Assembly: GCA_965227295.1 (NCBI GenBank)
Contig: OZ245742.1
Span: 4,160,001-4,224,000, forward strand
Direction: 5' to 3'
DNA length: 64,000 bases
From: Leptonemataceae bacterium
GTDB lineage: Bacteria > Spirochaetota > Leptospiria > Leptospirales > Leptonemataceae
A program made the translations under genes and the position numbers. Below the pieces are notes generated by a model that saw nothing but the letters and a program-made list of their open reading frames with translations, was not told the DNA's origin and did no database searches. Positions 28,506 to 40,266 of this stretch are shown here, piece by piece (within the stretch, counting starts at the first letter, position 1; each line of letters opens with the position of its first letter).

Positions 28506-30263
28506 TTAGTGCAGATCGCCGAAGAAGTGCGTCGTGCCCTCACCGAGCAATTCCCCGTCCGCCAGGGACGGAGACAGGTCCAGAGAAGACGCAAGATCGG
28601 CGTCATAAAACAGGTAGAGCGAGCCTTGCTGGGCGCCGGCGCCGGCATCACGCCGGGGGGCGGATAGAAAGAGTTCCGGATGGCGATTGCCGTTCCAGTC
28701 GCCCAGGCGCAGGTCGCTTCCGAACGAATGAGCGCTGCTTTCGCCGGTGGCAATGACCGACTCCGACTCCGGGACCGACGCCGCCCAGGAACTACGCCCG
28801 GAAAAGACATACACCCGTCCCTGGAGGGAATTGAAGCCCTGGGCAAGCAGAATCAGTTCCGGCAATCCGTCGGCGTTCAGATCGGCGACCCGCGCCCCGG
28901 CAGTGTTGGCCGCCAGGACCTCGGTATCGTTCGCCGTATCCACGGTGGAAGTGAAGCCGCCCGCGTTTCCGAAGAAGATCCGATACGAGGCATTTCCCTG
29001 AAATAAGAGATCCGTGTAGCCGTCCGCATTCAGGTCGGCCGCGCGCGGGTGCGCGCCGAACTCGTTGCCGGGGGACGTGCCCGTAAAGATCACGTCGGCG
29101 ATGGCCGCAGAACCGCTCGCCAGACCGCCCGGGCTTCCGTAGTGCACGTAGCTACGCCCGGTAAAGACGCCCGCGGGATAGCCCAGGGCGTTGGCGATGA
29201 CGTCGGCGTAACCGTCCGCGTTGACGTCCGCCACGAAGAGGTCGTCGGCCAGTTCCTCGAGCCCCGCCTCTCCCTGCACGGTCGTATCCGCACTGCTGAT
29301 ATCACCATCCGCCAGTGGAGCGGCGGAACCGTGAAAAACGAACCACCCACCCCGATCACTCAGATAACCCGAAGCACCGACGACGATGTCGGCGTAGCCG
29401 TCGCCGTTGACGTCGCCGGTGTACAGCAACTGGCCGAGCGCGGTACTCGCCGTGCCGCGCAAGGTCGCGTCGGCATCCGCCGGGCTCGTCGCGGAGATAC
29501 CGTTCGCGCTGCCGTAGTAAACGTAAATAGCCCCACTGCCCGGGGCGGGCACGGCGGCCCCGGATGCACCCACAAACAAATCCGCGTAGCCGTCGCCGTT
29601 CAGATCACCGGTATTGAAGCCGGACCCGAGACTTTCATTCGTCGCGGTACCGGTGATGATGACGTCGGCCGCGGCCGGCGAGGTGGATTCGATACGTGAA
29701 CCGTCACTGCGTCCGTAATAGAGATAGAGCCGTCCCGCATTGCTCACGCCGGAGTCGTAGGTCGTGGCAGCAACGAGCAACTCCGCGAAACCGTCTCCGT
29801 TTATATCCCGATTGCGACCGATGGTAATCGTCGTCTCGACGCTGCTTGAGGGAGCGGCATAGATCGAGTTCACCCGCACGGTGACGCGGTGTTCCGTTCC
29901 TTCTCCGTAGCCCGCCGTCGTCGGCAGACGATAGCGCCACGTCGTCGTTCCTTCGGCCGGTTGAAATTCACCGTCGTTCAATGCAACCTCTACACCCAGG
30001 ACCGGCGTGGATGCCTCCGCCGTTCCGATCAGGTACGCCGATTCCACGATGCCGGTGGTCTGCCGATTCGTGAACACGACCGCGGCTTCCGGCCGGCCCC
30101 AGAAGAATAGCGCCGCCGGATTGCAGGCAACGTCGGCCGTTGCGCAGGGAGGCTCCGCCATATCGCCGGCGCAGTGACCCGAAAAGCCGATCGCGCCGAG
30201 AACGAGGAGGAGCAGGGTTAATAGTTTATTGTTAGAAGTTAGGGAACGAAGTTGTCTCTGCAT
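28506..30263 (-). CDS. FG-GAP repeat (integrin-alpha-like beta-propeller) surface lipoprotein with Ig-like domain
   Basis: Signal ending in SGHC; repeated DxNGDGYAD motifs with GA..G..Y.Y.G segments. Confidence 0.85.
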   Translation of the reverse strand: MQRQLRSLTSNNKLLTLLLLVLGAIGFSGHCAGDMAEPPCATADVACNPAALFFWGRPEAAVVFTNRQTTGIVESAYLIGTAEASTPVLGVEVALNDGEFQPAEGTTTWRYRLPTTAGYGEGTEHRVTVRVNSIYAAPSSSVETTITIGRNRDINGDGFAELLVAATTYDSGVSNAGRLYLYYGRSDGSRIESTSPAAADVIITGTATNESLGSGFNTGDLNGDGYADLFVGASGAAVPAPGSGAIYVYYGSANGISATSPADADATLRGTASTALGQLLYTGDVNGDGYADIVVGASGYLSDRGGWFVFHGSAAPLADGDISSADTTVQGEAGLEELADDLFVADVNADGYADVIANALGYPAGVFTGRSYVHYGSPGGLASGSAAIADVIFTGTSPGNEFGAHPRAADLNADGYTDLLFQGNASYRIFFGNAGGFTSTVDTANDTEVLAANTAGARVADLNADGLPELILLAQGFNSLQGRVYVFSGRSSWAASVPESESVIATGESSAHSFGSDLRLGDWNGNRHPELFLSAPRRDAGAGAQQGSLYLFYDADLASSLDLSPSLADGELLGEGTTHFFGDLH

Positions 30264-31252: not shown

Positions 31253-32824
31253 TCATTCGCGGATGGAGAAACCGAATTGCTCGTTGTTCTCGGCACCCTG
31301 GATGATCAGGTCGTTGACCGTCCGACTGACCGTACCGCTCAGACGGGTGTCCGTGTTTTCGTAGAGCACGGTGGCCATCCCGAAATCCGTGCCGGGGCCG
31401 TCCGCGGTGGGGCTGCTGAAGACGATCTCGGTCAATGTCCCATCCCCGTTGAGATCCTGGCGGAGCAACGGGGCCCCGAAGCCCTCGTTTGCCTCGGCCC
31501 CCTGCACGCGCACGAAGCCCTGGGTCACCAGAAGCGTGGAACCGGAAGTGAGCGCCGCACCGGTGAAGGCGTAGGCCTCGCCCCGCCCGGTCCCCCCGCC
31601 CGCGGACTGGGCCGCCGTGATCCAGAGGTCCGGGTAATCGTCGCCGTTGATGTCCTCGCGCACGGCCAGGAGGTCACCGCTGCGATCGTTGTCGGCCTCA
31701 CCCCGGATGGTCACGTCGGCGTTCGTGCGAAACTTTGTTCCGCCGAACGGCGGAAAGTAGATGTGAGTTTCGCCGCGCTGGGTTCCTCCGCCGCCGGCCT
31801 GTACGGAACTGGCGGCGATTTCGATGAGGCCGTCGTTGTTCAGGTCCCCGTGGGCGATGAATGACGGAAAGGCCTCGTTGGAGACCGTGCCGCGGTAGAC
31901 GGCAAAGGCCTGGTCCGCTGTGATCAGGCTGCCGTTCGTGAACGGCCCGGCATACAGCCGCAGGGCGCCGGCATCGGATTGGCCGTTGGCCGTGTCGTCC
32001 TCACGGTTCGCCGCGACAATGAGATCGTTGATGCCGTCGTTGGTGATGTCGGCCACGTTCTGGCGAAACCCGAAGAAACTACCGGACACCGCTCCCTCGA
32101 ACTGTATGTTTGAGTCGGCCTCGGTGAGACTGCCGGTGCTGATGTTGCTGCTGCCGAGATAGACGTAGATCATTCCCGAGTTGGTTACGTTGGGTCCGTT
32201 GGCGCCGAAGGCTCCGACGCTCAGGTCCGCCACCGTATCGTTGTTCAGGTCGCCGATGGTCATGGAGTTGCCCAGGCTCGCGTTGTCGGTGGTGTGGGTG
32301 AGGATCATGTCCGCGTCCGAGGCCAGAAGCGTTGCCGGCCAGGAGCTCCGCCCGAAGAAGACATACACAAAGCCGCGACTCGTGCCGGCGCCGTTGGCCG
32401 TAAAGGCGCTGAAGGCGAGATCGTCCAGGCCGTCCGCGTTGATGTCTCCCACGGCCTGGATGATCCCGAACTGCCCGCTGTTCTCGACACCCGTGATTTT
32501 AACGTCGGCGGTGTCGTTCTGAATGCTTCCCGTAGCGCTGAGGGGACCGAAGTAGATGTAGATCCGCCCGCGATCGGTACCGCCGCCATCGTAACCAAAT
32601 CCACCGATCATCAGGTCTTCGTTGCCGTCGTTGTTGAAATCCGCCTTGATGGTCGGCGGCGTTTCGGGCGGGGTATAAAAGAGATAGGCGAGCCAGGCAG
32701 TACCGCAATAGGGATCCCGGGCATCGCATTCTGTTTCCACGGTCAGGCAGGCCGGCATCGTCGACAGGACAGCGCCGGCCAGGATCGCGAGAAATGTTTG
32801 GTGAATGGTATGTCCCCGATTCAT
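31253..32824 (-). CDS. FG-GAP repeat surface lipoprotein
   Basis: Signal ending in MPAC; repeated D(L/I)N(N/G)DG motifs; start moved to ATG 32824. Confidence 0.85.
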   Translation of the reverse strand: MNRGHTIHQTFLAILAGAVLSTMPACLTVETECDARDPYCGTAWLAYLFYTPPETPPTIKADFNNDGNEDLMIGGFGYDGGGTDRGRIYIYFGPLSATGSIQNDTADVKITGVENSGQFGIIQAVGDINADGLDDLAFSAFTANGAGTSRGFVYVFFGRSSWPATLLASDADMILTHTTDNASLGNSMTIGDLNNDTVADLSVGAFGANGPNVTNSGMIYVYLGSSNISTGSLTEADSNIQFEGAVSGSFFGFRQNVADITNDGINDLIVAANREDDTANGQSDAGALRLYAGPFTNGSLITADQAFAVYRGTVSNEAFPSFIAHGDLNNDGLIEIAASSVQAGGGGTQRGETHIYFPPFGGTKFRTNADVTIRGEADNDRSGDLLAVREDINGDDYPDLWITAAQSAGGGTGRGEAYAFTGAALTSGSTLLVTQGFVRVQGAEANEGFGAPLLRQDLNGDGTLTEIVFSSPTADGPGTDFGMATVLYENTDTRLSGTVSRTVNDLIIQGAENNEQFGFSIRE

Positions 32825-32959
32825 GGGACATGGTTTATCCGATCGCGTTTCTTGCCAGAAAAAACGAGGTTTGCCTCGATGCACCTGCGCCCTGCCCGGC
32901 TACTGAAACTCCGTCGCCCAAATGGTTGACCCGATCCCGCCGTCACGGCTTGTTTCCTC

Positions 32960-34633
32960 ATGCCCTCTACGTACGACTTCATCATCGTCGGCGGCGGCTC
33001 GGCCGGCTGCGTGCTGGCCAACCGTCTGTCGGCCAATGCCGATCAATCCGTGCTCATGCTCGAAGCCGGCCGCCCGGATTACTGGTGGGACCTGTTCATC
33101 CACATGCCCGCCGCGCTCACGATTCCCATCGGCAACAAACACTACGACTGGATGTACGAATCGGAGCCGGAACCGTTCATGGACGGCCGTCGCGTCTATC
33201 ACGCCCGCGGCAAGGTCCTCGGCGGTTCGTCGTCCATCAACGGCATGATCTTCCAGCGCGGCAATCCCCGGGACTTCGAAAAATGGAGTAAGTTGCCGGG
33301 CCTCGGGAACTGGGACTACGCCCACTGCCTGCCGTACTTCAAGCGCATGGAAGAGTGCACGGCCGAACGCGACGGTATTTTGGGCGGCGGCGGGCGCAGC
33401 GCAGAGTTTCGCGGCACCGACGGACCGCTGTGGCTCGAACGCGGGCCGGGTGTGAATCCGCTCTTCGCCGCGTTCTTACAGGCGGCCGAACAGGCCGGCT
33501 ACCCGCTCACCGACGACGTCAACGGTTTTCAGCAGGAGGGCTTCGCGTTGTTTGATCGGAACGTGCGCAAGGGCCGGCGGTGGTCCGCGGCGCGGGCGTA
33601 CTATCATCCTGTCAAACATCGCAAGAACTTAACGTTGCGCAGTCGTGTATTAACGTCGCGCATCATTTTCGAAGAAGGCGGTAGTCGACCCCGGGCCGTG
33701 GGTGTGGAGTTTTTTCGCGGGCGTAAACGTGAAGTCGTCTACGGAAAAGAAATCATTCTGTGCGCCGGGGCCTTCAACTCGCCGCAGTTGCTGCAACTTT
33801 CCGGCGTGGGCCCGGCCGAACATCTCAAGGCCGCCGGCGTGAACGACGTGCGCCTGGACCTGAAGGGCGTCGGTGAGAATCTGATGGACCACCTGGAAGT
33901 CTACGTACAGTACGCGTGCAAGAAGCCGGTGTCGATGAACCCGGCGCTGAAATGGTGGCGCAAACCGTTCATTGGAGCGCAGTGGTTGTTTCGTACCGGC
34001 CCGGCCGCGACGAATCACTTTGAGGCCGGCGGCTTCATCAAGAGCAATGCGAACGAGGCCTATCCGAACCTCATGTTTCACTTTTTGCCCCTGGCGATTC
34101 GCTATGACGGCTCGTCGCCGGCCGGCGGTCACGGTTACCAGGTGCACGTCGGTCCGATGTTTTCGGACGCCCGCGGCCACGTGCGCATTCAATCGACGGA
34201 TCCGCGCGTGCATCCGAAGTGTTTGTTTAATTATCTCAGTACGGAACAGGATCGTCGGGAATGGAAGGAAGCCGTGGACCGCGCCCGCGACATCCTGAAT
34301 CAGCCGGCCATGGCCGAGTTCAACGGCGGCGAGATCTCTCCGGGCCCCGGCGTAAGTTCGAACGAGGAGATCTTAGCGTGGGTTGCGAAGGACGCGGAAA
34401 CCGCGCTCCATCCTTCGGGTACCTGCAAGATGGGGACGGACGAATGGGCCGTCACCGATCCGGAAGGCCTGCGCGTGCACGGCACGGAGGGCCTGCGCGT
34501 CGTGGACGCTTCGATCATGCCGATCATTACGAACGGTAACATCTACGCGCCGACGGTTATGATGGCCGAGAAGGCCGCGGACGCGATCCTGGGGAACACG
34601 CCGCTGCCGGCGGAAGACGTGACGTGGGGCTGA
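32960..34633 (+). CDS. betA: Choline dehydrogenase (GMC oxidoreductase)
   Basis: GGGSAG, IHMPAAL, RGKVLGGSSSINGM, GENLMDHLEVY, HFLPLAIRYDG, ETALHPSGTC, NGNIYAPT. Confidence 0.92.
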   Translation: MPSTYDFIIVGGGSAGCVLANRLSANADQSVLMLEAGRPDYWWDLFIHMPAALTIPIGNKHYDWMYESEPEPFMDGRRVYHARGKVLGGSSSINGMIFQRGNPRDFEKWSKLPGLGNWDYAHCLPYFKRMEECTAERDGILGGGGRSAEFRGTDGPLWLERGPGVNPLFAAFLQAAEQAGYPLTDDVNGFQQEGFALFDRNVRKGRRWSAARAYYHPVKHRKNLTLRSRVLTSRIIFEEGGSRPRAVGVEFFRGRKREVVYGKEIILCAGAFNSPQLLQLSGVGPAEHLKAAGVNDVRLDLKGVGENLMDHLEVYVQYACKKPVSMNPALKWWRKPFIGAQWLFRTGPAATNHFEAGGFIKSNANEAYPNLMFHFLPLAIRYDGSSPAGGHGYQVHVGPMFSDARGHVRIQSTDPRVHPKCLFNYLSTEQDRREWKEAVDRARDILNQPAMAEFNGGEISPGPGVSSNEEILAWVAKDAETALHPSGTCKMGTDEWAVTDPEGLRVHGTEGLRVVDASIMPIITNGNIYAPTVMMAEKAADAILGNTPLPAEDVTWG

Positions 34634-34640
34634 CGCTCCC

Positions 34641-35246
34641 TTACTTCGGCGACTTGCGGTGAATGACCTCGGGGCCGATCTCATCGTATTCGTCCGGCGT
34701 GATCATCGTTTCGGCGAACGTGGAATCGGCCGCCATGCCGGACGTCATGGACCAACTCGTAAAGTGCGGGCTCATGAAGAATCCGGCGACACCGAAGGTT
34801 TCGAAGAACAACTGCGTGGTTGCTTCGCGGGCTTCGTCCGTACTATTCGCGGCCTCGTTTAGAACCACGGCGACCTCGTCCGGTTCTACCTGAAGTTTGC
34901 TCGATAGAATGTGTTGCACGAGCGCTTCGAAGGCGTTCCGGTCGCTGATCGTATTACCACCGGGTTCCAGGGCGTAAGTAATTTTTAATGTAGCTTTGCG
35001 TTCGAGGGCTTCGTTGCCGTAATAGGTTTTTGTACCGCCCATGCCGATCATCGGTCCCGGACTCGCGCTTGTGCCGATCACGGCCGGCATGCTGAACCGC
35101 GGCGCGGATTCGCCGGCCAGACCGGCTTCGATGTTGCCGTCTTTGAGATGCAGGACGACCGTTTGTTCGGGACCGCCGGCGGACAGAGGCAGCGCGAAAA
35201 CGGCGAGCACAATGCAGAGTAGTAATCGATACGACAGGTAATTCAT
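34641..35246 (-). CDS. Secreted truncated eukaryotic-actin-like protein (subdomains 1+2 only)
   Basis: Signal peptide, then AGLAGESAPR, MIGMG, GNEA, REATTQLFFETF, STF...ITPDEYDEIGPEVIHRK, matching actin N- and C-terminal segments. Confidence 0.85.
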   Translation of the reverse strand: MNYLSYRLLLCIVLAVFALPLSAGGPEQTVVLHLKDGNIEAGLAGESAPRFSMPAVIGTSASPGPMIGMGGTKTYYGNEALERKATLKITYALEPGGNTISDRNAFEALVQHILSSKLQVEPDEVAVVLNEAANSTDEAREATTQLFFETFGVAGFFMSPHFTSWSMTSGMAADSTFAETMITPDEYDEIGPEVIHRKSPK

Positions 35247-35303
35247 GTAAAAAATCTCCAGGCAATCTATGCAAAATTTAGACGATGATCCGCCCGATTT
35301 TGT

Positions 35304-36884
35304 TCACCCGGCCCATTCCTCGCGCTCTTGTTCCAGGGGAACAAACTCCGGTTTCAGGAAATAGGCTGAAGTAGTGTCTTCCATTAACAGGCGTAGAAAT
35401 TCACCTACGGACCGTGCAATGAACACACGGTCCTCCGGAGTCCGTTCCAGTACAACTTCGAAACCGTAATCATCTACGGCGATCCAGGCGCCGTCCTGCA
35501 TTTTGCCGAAGGCGATGCCTCGCATATCCGAATAGTCGACACCACCGTCCGTACGATGCTCCACCGTCGCCAGCGGTTCCAGATCCTGCACCGGCAAAAA
35601 CTCGAACTGCCATTGCGGGAAACGAATGCCGTCACATTTATGATACAACGCATTCAGCTCCGCGGGAACGTCGCCCAGTAAAAACGAAACGGTACCGTGC
35701 AACGCTTCGGACACCGCGCCGGCCGGCTTTGGCGGTCGCGGGCTGCCGTACAGCATCAGCTCATCGATGAATTGTAAGGCCGTGCGTACTTCGCGGACGG
35801 CCCATCCGGGCTTCGGCTTCAGGGCGAGGCCTTCCTGATGCACACCCGCGACTCCGCCCACGAATTCCATGCGTTTTGATACGAGGCGGTCCCTGTACTG
35901 AAACGGAACGAAGGAGAGGCCGGAAGGCAAAGAATCAGCGCTCAATCCCGGTCCCAGATCGTAACTTGCATCTTCCCAGTCTTCGTCCGTAACGCCCAGG
36001 ATCGGATTGGGAATCGTAAACCGTCCGGTAACATAGTTGCGCACATACGGAAAGAGATGCGCGATCCAACCGTTCATCAACTCTTCGCCGTAAGCATCCC
36101 TGAGTTTGTAGATGCGTCGCCAGTGGTCCAGGTCAATGTCACCGGAACGCGCGCGCACAAACTGATCGCACACCGGAACCAGATACTCCAGCCACCATGC
36201 ACAGTCATAATCGTGCAGGTACTCCACTTTGGCTCGCAAACGTTGCCAGTCGGCCGGAGTACCTTCCAGTGTGATTTCCGGAATACCGCAGACACAAACA
36301 GAGCGATAGTTGTAAAACGGCTGAAAGACATCCATCATGACCAGGCGACTGACCAAAAGCTCCAGCGGGCCGGAGGTACTGAAGTCGGCCTCCAGCCATT
36401 GAAAAGACTTCGGAGCGCGCGCCTCGATTTCCTCTGCAAACATGGGAAACATAAGCTGCCAGGGATTTTCCGGAGCGCCGTCGACAAAACCTTCGACTTC
36501 GATCGTAATGTCTTTCGTGCCTTCATGTGAGACCAGGCGATCTCGCAGATGCTCCGCATGATTGTGCACGTGATTTGCCAGGCCCTGGGCGATCGTAATC
36601 CAGATCGCATCCGGCGTGAGAATGAGCGGGCGATGCTCGCTGAAGGCAAGATGCACGGCACCGACTAATGGATGACCGGGCGCTCGCACCACGTTATCGG
36701 TATAACTGTAACATGCCTCCAGGGGAGCCGCTTCCTCTTCCGGATAGCTGTACGGCCCGTGATCCACACTGTCGATGGTGCCGGCCATGTAGTCGTAGAT
36801 CTTGCACTCGGGCAGCGGCTCTCGCGCCGGTTCAACATCGTCCACCGGAAACGTGATGTATTGTTCGTTCTTGCGTATGTTCAT
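35304..36884 (-). CDS. DUF4419 domain protein with possible C-terminal SMI1/KNR4-like domain
   Basis: AFSEHRPLILTPDAIWITIAQG, DFSTS, CGIPEITLEGTPADW, GWIAHLFP; C-terminal VPAELNALY...DG and IARSVGEFL. Confidence 0.75.
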   Translation of the reverse strand: MNIRKNEQYITFPVDDVEPAREPLPECKIYDYMAGTIDSVDHGPYSYPEEEAAPLEACYSYTDNVVRAPGHPLVGAVHLAFSEHRPLILTPDAIWITIAQGLANHVHNHAEHLRDRLVSHEGTKDITIEVEGFVDGAPENPWQLMFPMFAEEIEARAPKSFQWLEADFSTSGPLELLVSRLVMMDVFQPFYNYRSVCVCGIPEITLEGTPADWQRLRAKVEYLHDYDCAWWLEYLVPVCDQFVRARSGDIDLDHWRRIYKLRDAYGEELMNGWIAHLFPYVRNYVTGRFTIPNPILGVTDEDWEDASYDLGPGLSADSLPSGLSFVPFQYRDRLVSKRMEFVGGVAGVHQEGLALKPKPGWAVREVRTALQFIDELMLYGSPRPPKPAGAVSEALHGTVSFLLGDVPAELNALYHKCDGIRFPQWQFEFLPVQDLEPLATVEHRTDGGVDYSDMRGIAFGKMQDGAWIAVDDYGFEVVLERTPEDRVFIARSVGEFLRLLMEDTTSAYFLKPEFVPLEQEREEWAG

Positions 36885-37046
36885 GATAGAGGACGGATCA
36901 GCGACGATGGCAGTCTTCCGATTCGCTGTCCATCTAAATCATCCGGCGGGAACGTCCTTGCTCTTTTCGTGATGACCGGGAAAACTCGCCGTTATGCATC
37001 GCATCTTACTTGTTTTAAGTATGCTTTTTTGAGTGACGGAGCCGGA

Positions 37047-38864: not shown

Positions 38865-40266
38865 AATCAAGAGCCGCGAATCCGAACCCGCTCCGCCCCA
38901 CGGATTGAGCGGGGCTCCGGGTGCGGATTCGCTTGCTGGATCTTTACGATGAAGACGCCGTTCCGGTCCGCCGAACCACGATCCCCGGCACAACCTCCGC
39001 ACGTCAGCTGGAACCGGCTGTACCCATAATAGTGTTAATCCAAACTGGCCTTAACTTACACCACGATTCGGGCCTAAGCGAACGAATAAAACGCTTCCGG
39101 TAGTTCAAGAGCTGTGCCCCGCGGCGGTTGCCGTGAAAATACGATATAAGTTGCGCAATGTTGAAGGGGTTCTTTTTGCTACGGCTTAGCGGGAGTTGTG
39201 GAGTTTCGTTTTGCAAAGCACGCTGCGTTCGACCCGGACGTCGCTTTGCAAGTCAACTACCGGACGTTTCTTGCGGCGAAGACGCCGTTCCGGTGCGCCT
39301 TACCAAATTCCCCGGCATGACCTCCGTTCATCTGCTGGAACCAGCCGTACCCAAAAAGTACACTGGCCGCCACTTACACTACGATTCGGGGCGTCCGCGA
39401 ACAACCCGCGCGTTTCCGGTAGTTCAAGAGCCGCGGTTCGTTGCGATTGCCGTGAGGAACATGAAGTAAGTTGTGCAACGGTGAAGGGGTTGTTATGGCT
39501 ACGGCGAAGCGGGAGTTGTGGTATGTCGTTTTGTTAAGACAGTCCGCATCGACCCGGACGTCGGTTGTGCGACTTCTCTATCGTATCGTTTCTTACGGCG
39601 AAGACGCCGTTCCGGTCCGCCTCACCATGCTCCCCGGCATGACCTCCGCCCGTCAGCTGGAACCAGCTGTACCCATAAAAGGCTTAATGTACACTGGCCG
39701 CTACTTACACTACGATTCTGGGCGTGCGTGAGCTACCCGAACGTTTCCGGTAGTTCAAGAGCCGCGGTTCGTTGCGATCGCCGTGAGAAACATGACGTAA
39801 GTTGCGCAACGGTGAAGGGGTTGTTATGGCTACGGCGAAGCGGGAGTTGTGGTATGTCGTTTTGTTAAGACAGTCCGCATCGACCCGGACGTCGGTTGTG
39901 CGACTTCTCTATCGTATCGTTTCTTACGGCGAAGACGCCGTTCCGGTCCGCCTCACCATGCTCCCCGGCATGACCTCCGCCCGTCAGCTGGAACCAGCTG
40001 TACCCATAAAAGGCTTAATGTACACTGGCCGCTACTTACCTCACGATTCAGGGCGTGTGCGAATAATCAAAACATTTCCGGCATTCAAGAGCCGCGGTTT
40101 ATGCACGCCGCCGTGAACATCAAAGCGTAAGTCGTGTAATAGTAGCGGTATCTTTTGGTTACGGCTCTTCGGAGTTGTGGAAATTCGTTTTGCAAAGAAC
40201 GTTCACTTCGACCCGGACGTCGACTTACGACTCTGCTACCGAAGCGTCTCTGACGGCGAAGACCGC
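38865..40266 (+). repeat. Tandem array of ~322-331-bp non-coding units (4 full plus flanking partial copies); candidate structured ncRNA array
   Basis: Anchor GAAGACGCCGTTCCGGT at 38951, 39278, 39600, 39931, degenerate at 40258; nested inverted repeats with G-U pairs on + strand. Confidence 0.9.

Follow-up and report, generated by a model that had tools for sequence, protein, structure and literature searches.

An actin reduced to subdomains 1 and 2 behind a putative signal peptide in the Leptonemataceae

The window analysed here, a stretch of 64,000 nucleotides from the genome of a Leptonemataceae bacterium, encodes a 201-residue protein (P0001; 34641..35246, minus strand) in which a putative signal peptide precedes actin subdomains 1 and 2, as judged from the reading frame and from Pfam, PDB and structure evidence. 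The gene belongs to a real, conserved family and is neither an artefact nor a relic. On the evidence of alignments and trees, P0001 reads as the end point of a reduction inside one clade, a series that runs from full-length actins through forms without subdomain 4 to forms without subdomains 3 and 4. Our best reading, held tentatively, is that such half-actins may be exported, non-polymerising mimics of the D-loop that act on eukaryotic actin or its partners.

The half-actin gene and its product

A ribosome-binding-like GGAG (35256..35259), read from the sequence, lies 9 nt 5' of the ATG on the minus strand, which carries all features of the gene. Residues 1-23 (35178..35246) form a putative Sec-type signal peptide. 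It contains a basic residue, its hydrophobic core reaches a Kyte-Doolittle mean of 3.52 over 10 residues, and it closes with L-S-A; the cut site has no lipobox Cys. Leaders were called by a hydropathy heuristic together with this tripartite pattern. By that heuristic all 23 leaders examined, including that of every complete family member, scored 2.13-3.52, and 108 canonical actins scored 1.62 or less over their first 21 residues, which supports the putative signal peptide proposed in an earlier note on this DNA.

Behind the leader, the Pfam Actin profile (PF00022) matches P0001 with 87.6 bits against a cut-off of 27, split in two stretches. A PDB sequence search aligned query residues 28-162 with actin 7-139 (E 7e-20) and residues 162-198 with actin 338-374, and the best 60 of the 138 PDB matches are all actins. 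Full-length actins insert approximately 199 extra residues at the junction. In actin numbering, P0001 joins residues 28-161 (actin 6-137, the first part of subdomain 1 together with subdomain 2; 34764..35165) to residues 162-201 (actin 337-375, the C-terminal part of subdomain 1; 34644..34763) at the sequence SPHF (34761..34772), and actin 138-336 is missing. The same limits were found in 10 of 11 complete short proteins, and the eleventh lacks 140-338. In actin, the hinge helix comprises residues 137-145 and the hinge loop residues 335-337 (bioRxiv 10.1101/309534). By this alignment, the deletion takes out subdomains 3 and 4 plus the hinge, its limits coinciding with the hinge helix and the hinge loop. 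The earlier description of eukaryotic-type actin halves behind a signal peptide, with subdomains 3 and 4 cleanly absent, is therefore borne out, the hinge having gone as well.

The only other PF00022 match in the genome is a separate 343-residue frame, which we take to be MreB. Against prokaryotic profiles P0001 scored far under the cut-offs (BeeR, 24 against 530 bits; MamK, 17.5 against 400), and in the trees described below it nests among canonical actins, in agreement with its earlier assignment to actins of eukaryotic type rather than to MreB, ParM or FtsA.

AlphaFold2 gave a confident model of the mature chain (pLDDT 95.3, pTM 0.89), which is biased towards the actin fold because the folding alignment included 31 eukaryotic-type actin-like rows, 30 of them full-length or nearly so. 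In an exhaustive structural search, actin and Arps were matched over model residues 1-178 with Z 20-23, MreB with approximately 14 and AlfA with 6.8; Foldseek gave a concordant result, and a search of the ESM Atlas returned eukaryotic actin clusters and one generic cluster, and nothing else. The structure prediction suggested as a check in the earlier note thus matches actin subdomains 1 and 2, and P0001 is predicted to be a stable half with the actin fold in these subdomains.

Bacterial genes surround the half-actin gene, which sits on a single contig of 5.94 Mb; its immediate neighbours are a convergently oriented GMC oxidoreductase gene and, upstream, a DUF4419 gene. The earlier note had asked whether reads support the locus; positions 33002-37000 are spanned without differences by one contig in each of two sequencing runs of one study, runs that may be the source of the genome itself; a third run contributed no contig. 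Codon usage is ordinary for the host (GC3 0.70; codon adaptation at the 31st percentile of long open reading frames). Promoter and terminator scans at the locus returned chance-level counts (1 against 1.2 and 5 against 2.9, respectively). The DUF4419 gene (window 35304-36884, minus strand) ends 57 bp upstream of the half-actin gene on the same strand, and its product has a weak C-terminal match to SMI1/KNR4 (SUKH) under the cut-off (E 0.02); it was absent beside half-actin homologues in the neighbourhoods compared. Also near the locus are two FG-GAP repeat proteins with hydrophobic N-termini (window 28506-30263 and 31253-32884, minus strand) and, in a region with no long open reading frame (window 38938-40241), approximately four imperfect direct repeats spaced 320-331 bp apart, one pair of which is 96% identical over 300 nt.

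Distribution, selection and the reduction series

Relatives of the half-actin occur in 10 of the 42 genomes of its family, in 5 of 21 genera. The order also contains a second family of 114 genomes, which probably holds Leptospira, and none of these 114 has a relative. Among 300 other Spirochaetota genomes sampled no relative was detected; the one weak match, a 344-residue frame, was taken for MreB from its length and score. A single-protein search of genome contigs and a search of viral contigs yielded no relative, nor did plasmids and phages queried with canonical actin. The wider searches covered 1.84 billion representatives plus 90% clusters and yielded the further signal-peptide actins described below, and the named records with relatives are metagenome-assembled genomes, mostly labelled Leptospiraceae, Spirochaetaceae or Spirochaetales.

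The 11 complete short proteins are divergent (mean pairwise identity 51%) and share the same junction, a recurrence that independently argues against a chimeric locus. Six of the short genes, with GC3 from 0.43 to 0.72, could be compared in 15 pairs; in all 15, synonymous sites are at or near saturation (pS 0.58-0.81) and pN is 0.15-0.34. Purifying selection and the recurrence of the architecture in related genomes, both named in the earlier note as points to check, are thus evident. A conserved operon was ruled out, as flanking genes were common only within one genus (g20) and none was shared across genera in the nine neighbourhoods compared; hence no dedicated bacterial partner is evident.

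The short forms belong to a wider set of signal-peptide actins, extending the family beyond the picture in the earlier note to full-length and subdomain-4-less members in more than one phylum. Full-length members are P0158, P0050 (named Crocinitomix sp., on a 72-kb contig), P0058, P0014 and P0083. Subdomain 4 (approximately residues 184-273) is absent from P0009, P0010, P0157, P0022 (partial), P0129, P0053 and a gene of genome G036, in which a short form and the subdomain-4-less form lie 2.3 kb apart. The 11 short forms lack subdomains 3 and 4. The leader of the subdomain-4-less P0053 carries a twin-arginine motif, which suggests folded export and possibly an independent origin.

In a careful tree of 31 rows, 13 signal-peptide actins form one clade (99/99) whose sister is a pair of canonical actins, P0161 and P0164 (94/93). 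Within the clade full-length forms branch first, reduced forms are nested (97/89) and short forms are themselves a clade (99/92). A quick tree of 48 of 73 aligned rows agrees, with an 18-row clade (SH-aLRT 99). The trees omit near-duplicates, gene models that were chimeric and eukaryotic rows on very long branches, and vertebrate-like matches were left unaligned. Long branches, and short rows that fill less than half of the columns, make the branching order within the clade no more than moderately secure. The supported clade does not include P0053, P0083 or P0129, and an AU test of a single origin of all 21 signal-peptide actins decided neither way (p 0.37). With the clade nested among canonical actins, bacterial genes flanking the locus and ordinary codon usage, the eukaryotic origin and horizontal acquisition suggested in the earlier note are supported.

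A further copy comes from Aureispira, presumably a member of the Bacteroidota. Here a signal-peptide actin halts at position 138, where the end of a repeat begins. The repeat has at least 40 matches in the genome and looks like an insertion sequence; its end (L043 1897-2016) is preceded by TA in all eight copies read. The first four bases of a second contig match the break, and 12 residues encoded there fit best to actin 138-149, a register that scored 19.4 where the runner-up among 359 scored 5.5; 61 of 5000 shuffles did as well. Almost immediately after these residues the frame continues from position 340 to the C-terminus. The N-terminal part is sister to the short clade in the careful tree (94/91). 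We infer that the two pieces represent an interrupted half-actin in which the hinge helix is still present, and that signal-peptide actins probably exist in a second phylum beside the Spirochaetota. An intact copy was not found, none of 400 other genomes of the class has a relative, and the genus offers no second genome for comparison.

Two genomes of the Aureispira family also encode, on short contigs, signal-less actins of 281-284 residues (L064 311-1165 and L065 207-1052, both minus strand). These lack positions 42-51 and most of subdomain 4 and form a separate branch in a tree of 33 rows. They are co-linear with the syringactin profile and score 66-78 bits against its cut-off of 300. As these two bacterial actins do without residues 42-51, the D-loop is dispensable for the fold.

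Sites lost, sites kept and possible functions

The half-actin does not have the features of a conventional functional actin: the four-subdomain architecture that closes the nucleotide cleft, the phosphate loops with K18 and Q137, and the filament acceptor site. In P0001 the first phosphate loop (actin 11-15; 35136..35150) is a degenerate HLKDG, a stretch that varies in the short family; positions 18 and 137 are Glu and His, respectively, and the second phosphate loop is deleted. The alignment thus agrees with the earlier reading of HLKDG and with the nucleotide-free state proposed there. The phosphate loop, K18 and Q137 are changed in all clade members tabulated. Because the full-length members are already altered, nucleotide binding probably decayed early, before the deletions as ordered by the tree.

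Two surfaces have been retained. Among the 25 columns invariant in the 11 short forms, the D-loop tip accounts for three and the final 25 residues for 11, and both the tip motif P-M-x-G-M and the C-terminal acidic motif are invariant. At the tip, which reads GPMIGM in P0001 (actin 42-47; 35040..35057), P43, G46 and M47 are present in 11/11 short forms and M44 in the 10/10 with a residue there; M44 and M47 persist likewise in all five subdomain-4-less and all five other clade members tabulated. The acidic patch from E354 to D360-E-Y-D-E364 (34680..34712) is invariant in 11/11, with Glu at 354 and 361, and includes positions 354/356/361, which bind a cation in actin crystals (PMC6187199). In 29 eukaryotic actin-like controls, which are more divergent than the family (mean identity 41% compared to 51%), pairwise identity at P43, M44, M47, E354, D360 and D363 is 0.13-0.31. 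The retention of these sites relative to the controls is only suggestive, as the controls diverge more and invariance is inflated among 11 kin sequences.

In actin filaments, M44 inserts in a pocket formed by L142, Y143, T148 and I165 of the next subunit, and the D-loop, flexible in monomers, wraps the W-loop (bioRxiv 10.1101/309534). The short forms have lost both the M44 acceptor pocket and the W-loop. A half-actin would therefore carry the donor loop without its acceptor and could not form a normal filament, in keeping with the non-polymerising protein predicted earlier.

Our tentative best reading of the origin and role of such a protein runs as follows. As the tree shows, a canonical actin gene was taken up by a bacterium and provided with a signal peptide; the nucleotide site decayed and subdomain 4, then subdomain 3, was deleted, whereas the D-loop tip and, on subdomain 1, the C-terminal face remained fixed. 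Export would proceed via Sec and then probably out of the periplasm through a type II secretion system, for which gspD adjacent to gspE in the genome is a candidate sign. The Met44/Met47 D-loop could then be presented to a eukaryotic partner. Perhaps the half-actin docks on the barbed end of actin from lysed cells or during protist grazing, blocking addition, or perhaps it titrates proteins that recognise the D-loop. The more specific version of the former, a chain terminator that sits on the eukaryotic barbed end via its D-loop and leaves the next subunit nothing to bind, is unlikely, if conceivable. Several points weigh against a D-loop mimic. Several of the contacts that subdomain 2 makes in filaments have been lost (P38 is mostly Ser, V43 is Pro in the short forms, and R39, R62 and I64 vary), the contacts of subdomain 4 are gone, so that affinity for filament ends may be low, and common ancestry inflates the invariance of the 11 relatives. 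Moreover, Sec or type II export gives no delivery into eukaryotic cytosol, and no route is evident.

Access to eukaryotic cytosol would be unneeded if the protein acted in the bacterial envelope, with its Met-x-x-Met loop and acidic cluster binding metal or a bacterial partner in the periplasm or at the surface. The M44/M47 spacing is that of copper(I)-binding Met motifs in periplasmic proteins, the loop of P0012 is expanded to four Met, and E354 and E361, within the cation site noted above, are invariant. However, the motif was inherited unchanged from actin rather than newly built, the gene is patchy (10/42 genomes), and the nine neighbourhoods show no partner gene, for metal handling or otherwise, that is common to different genera; we consider this role somewhat less probable than an exported mimic, and on balance doubtful. 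Self-assembly of a new kind is improbable. The two invariant patches could form both sides of one interface in a dimer of halves or a thin filament, the D-loop gripping the C-terminal face of the next copy, and AlfA filaments do form without subdomain 4 (bioRxiv 10.1101/309534), but the canonical acceptor pocket and W-loop are deleted, F375 is not kept and the nucleotide site that would serve turnover has gone.

The decoy roles raised in the earlier note lose ground. DNase I binds G-actin via the D-loop, and such binding is unlikely for Arps whose loops diverge (PMC13018090). An inhibitor or decoy of DNase I-type nucleases would fit the conserved loop tip, and self-protection is conceivable in a genome with seven PF03372 (DNase I-like) matches. 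The contacts of DNase I, however, are with the region of actin positions 38-43 and with subdomain 4; in the short forms 38-41 vary, an invariant Pro occupies 43 and subdomain 4 has been lost, which makes such a role more improbable still than self-assembly. Gelsolin, profilin and WH2 proteins bind the actin cleft including subdomain 3, and a decoy for them is weakened by the deletion of that half of the cleft. Least credible of all is a decaying relic, a mis-assembly or eukaryotic contamination. The Aureispira copy is indeed broken by a high-copy repeat, and one genome (G443) carries a eukaryotic-looking gene, which we take to be ARP1-like, on a 2.6-kb contig. The half-actin gene, by contrast, has GC3 of 0.70 and lies on a 5.94-Mb contig of bacterial genes, and its family combines one junction in 11 proteins with synonymous saturation. 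The ARP1-like gene of G443 (L046 1136-2431, minus strand) adjoins a cytochrome b5-like frame, and that genome is probably contaminated with eukaryotic DNA.

Comparison with other bacterial actins

By sequence, the half-actin belongs with the eukaryote-derived bacterial actins. Like ActM of Microcystis aeruginosa PCC 7806, it is a eukaryote-type actin gained by a bacterium via horizontal transfer (PMC3254629). ActM, however, is intracellular and was transferred together with a profilin, and the strings 'signal peptide' and 'secret' both have 0 occurrences in the paper that describes it (PMC3254629). The half-actin, in contrast, carries a putative signal peptide, comprises half the fold and has no profilin gene as a neighbour; profiles PF00235, PF00626 and PF00241 have no match in the genome, and the control genomes likewise have none. 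BARP of Haliangium ochraceum (PMC3035250) and the actin-like protein of Ca. Uab amorphum (PMC6906331) also occur sporadically and group with eukaryotic actins. The available parts of their descriptions mention no export signal or loss of subdomains; the trees here were built without their sequences.

Other shortened actins keep different parts of the fold. Syringactin (NCBIfam NF040575, 286 positions), known here from its profile alone, corresponds to actin from approximately residue 73 onward, including subdomain 3, and has no match to the first strands or the D-loop stretch. Its C-terminal part matches P0001 with 33 bits against a cut-off of 300. It thus keeps nearly opposite parts to the half-actin, and none of the 42 family genomes exceeds its cut-off. 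AlfA of the Bacillus subtilis plasmid pLS32 resembles the intermediate forms described here in its loss of subdomain 4, but it is a filament-forming prokaryotic actin-like protein of plasmid segregation (Z 6.8 to our model; bioRxiv 10.1101/309534). A literature search, mostly without subscription papers, found no publication that describes signal-peptide actins or any actin cut down to subdomains 1 and 2, and the half-actin family is apparently undescribed.

Actin is among the most constrained of proteins and needs nucleotide and chaperonin to fold. A natural series from full-length forms to forms without subdomain 4 and then without subdomains 3 and 4, each with a predicted export signal, suggests that the outer domain is self-sufficient, and it points to the surfaces kept by selection. 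It also makes testable the folding of subdomains 1 and 2 without nucleotide or chaperonin, D-loop binding outside the filament, and actin mimicry by free-living bacteria; a soluble half-actin could, in addition, serve as a reagent.

Changes in the nucleotide site are also seen in three near-canonical full-length actins without a leader (P0159, P0162 and P0165), in which both phosphate loops and Q137 are changed and which are encoded on contigs of 1.7-5.4 kb.
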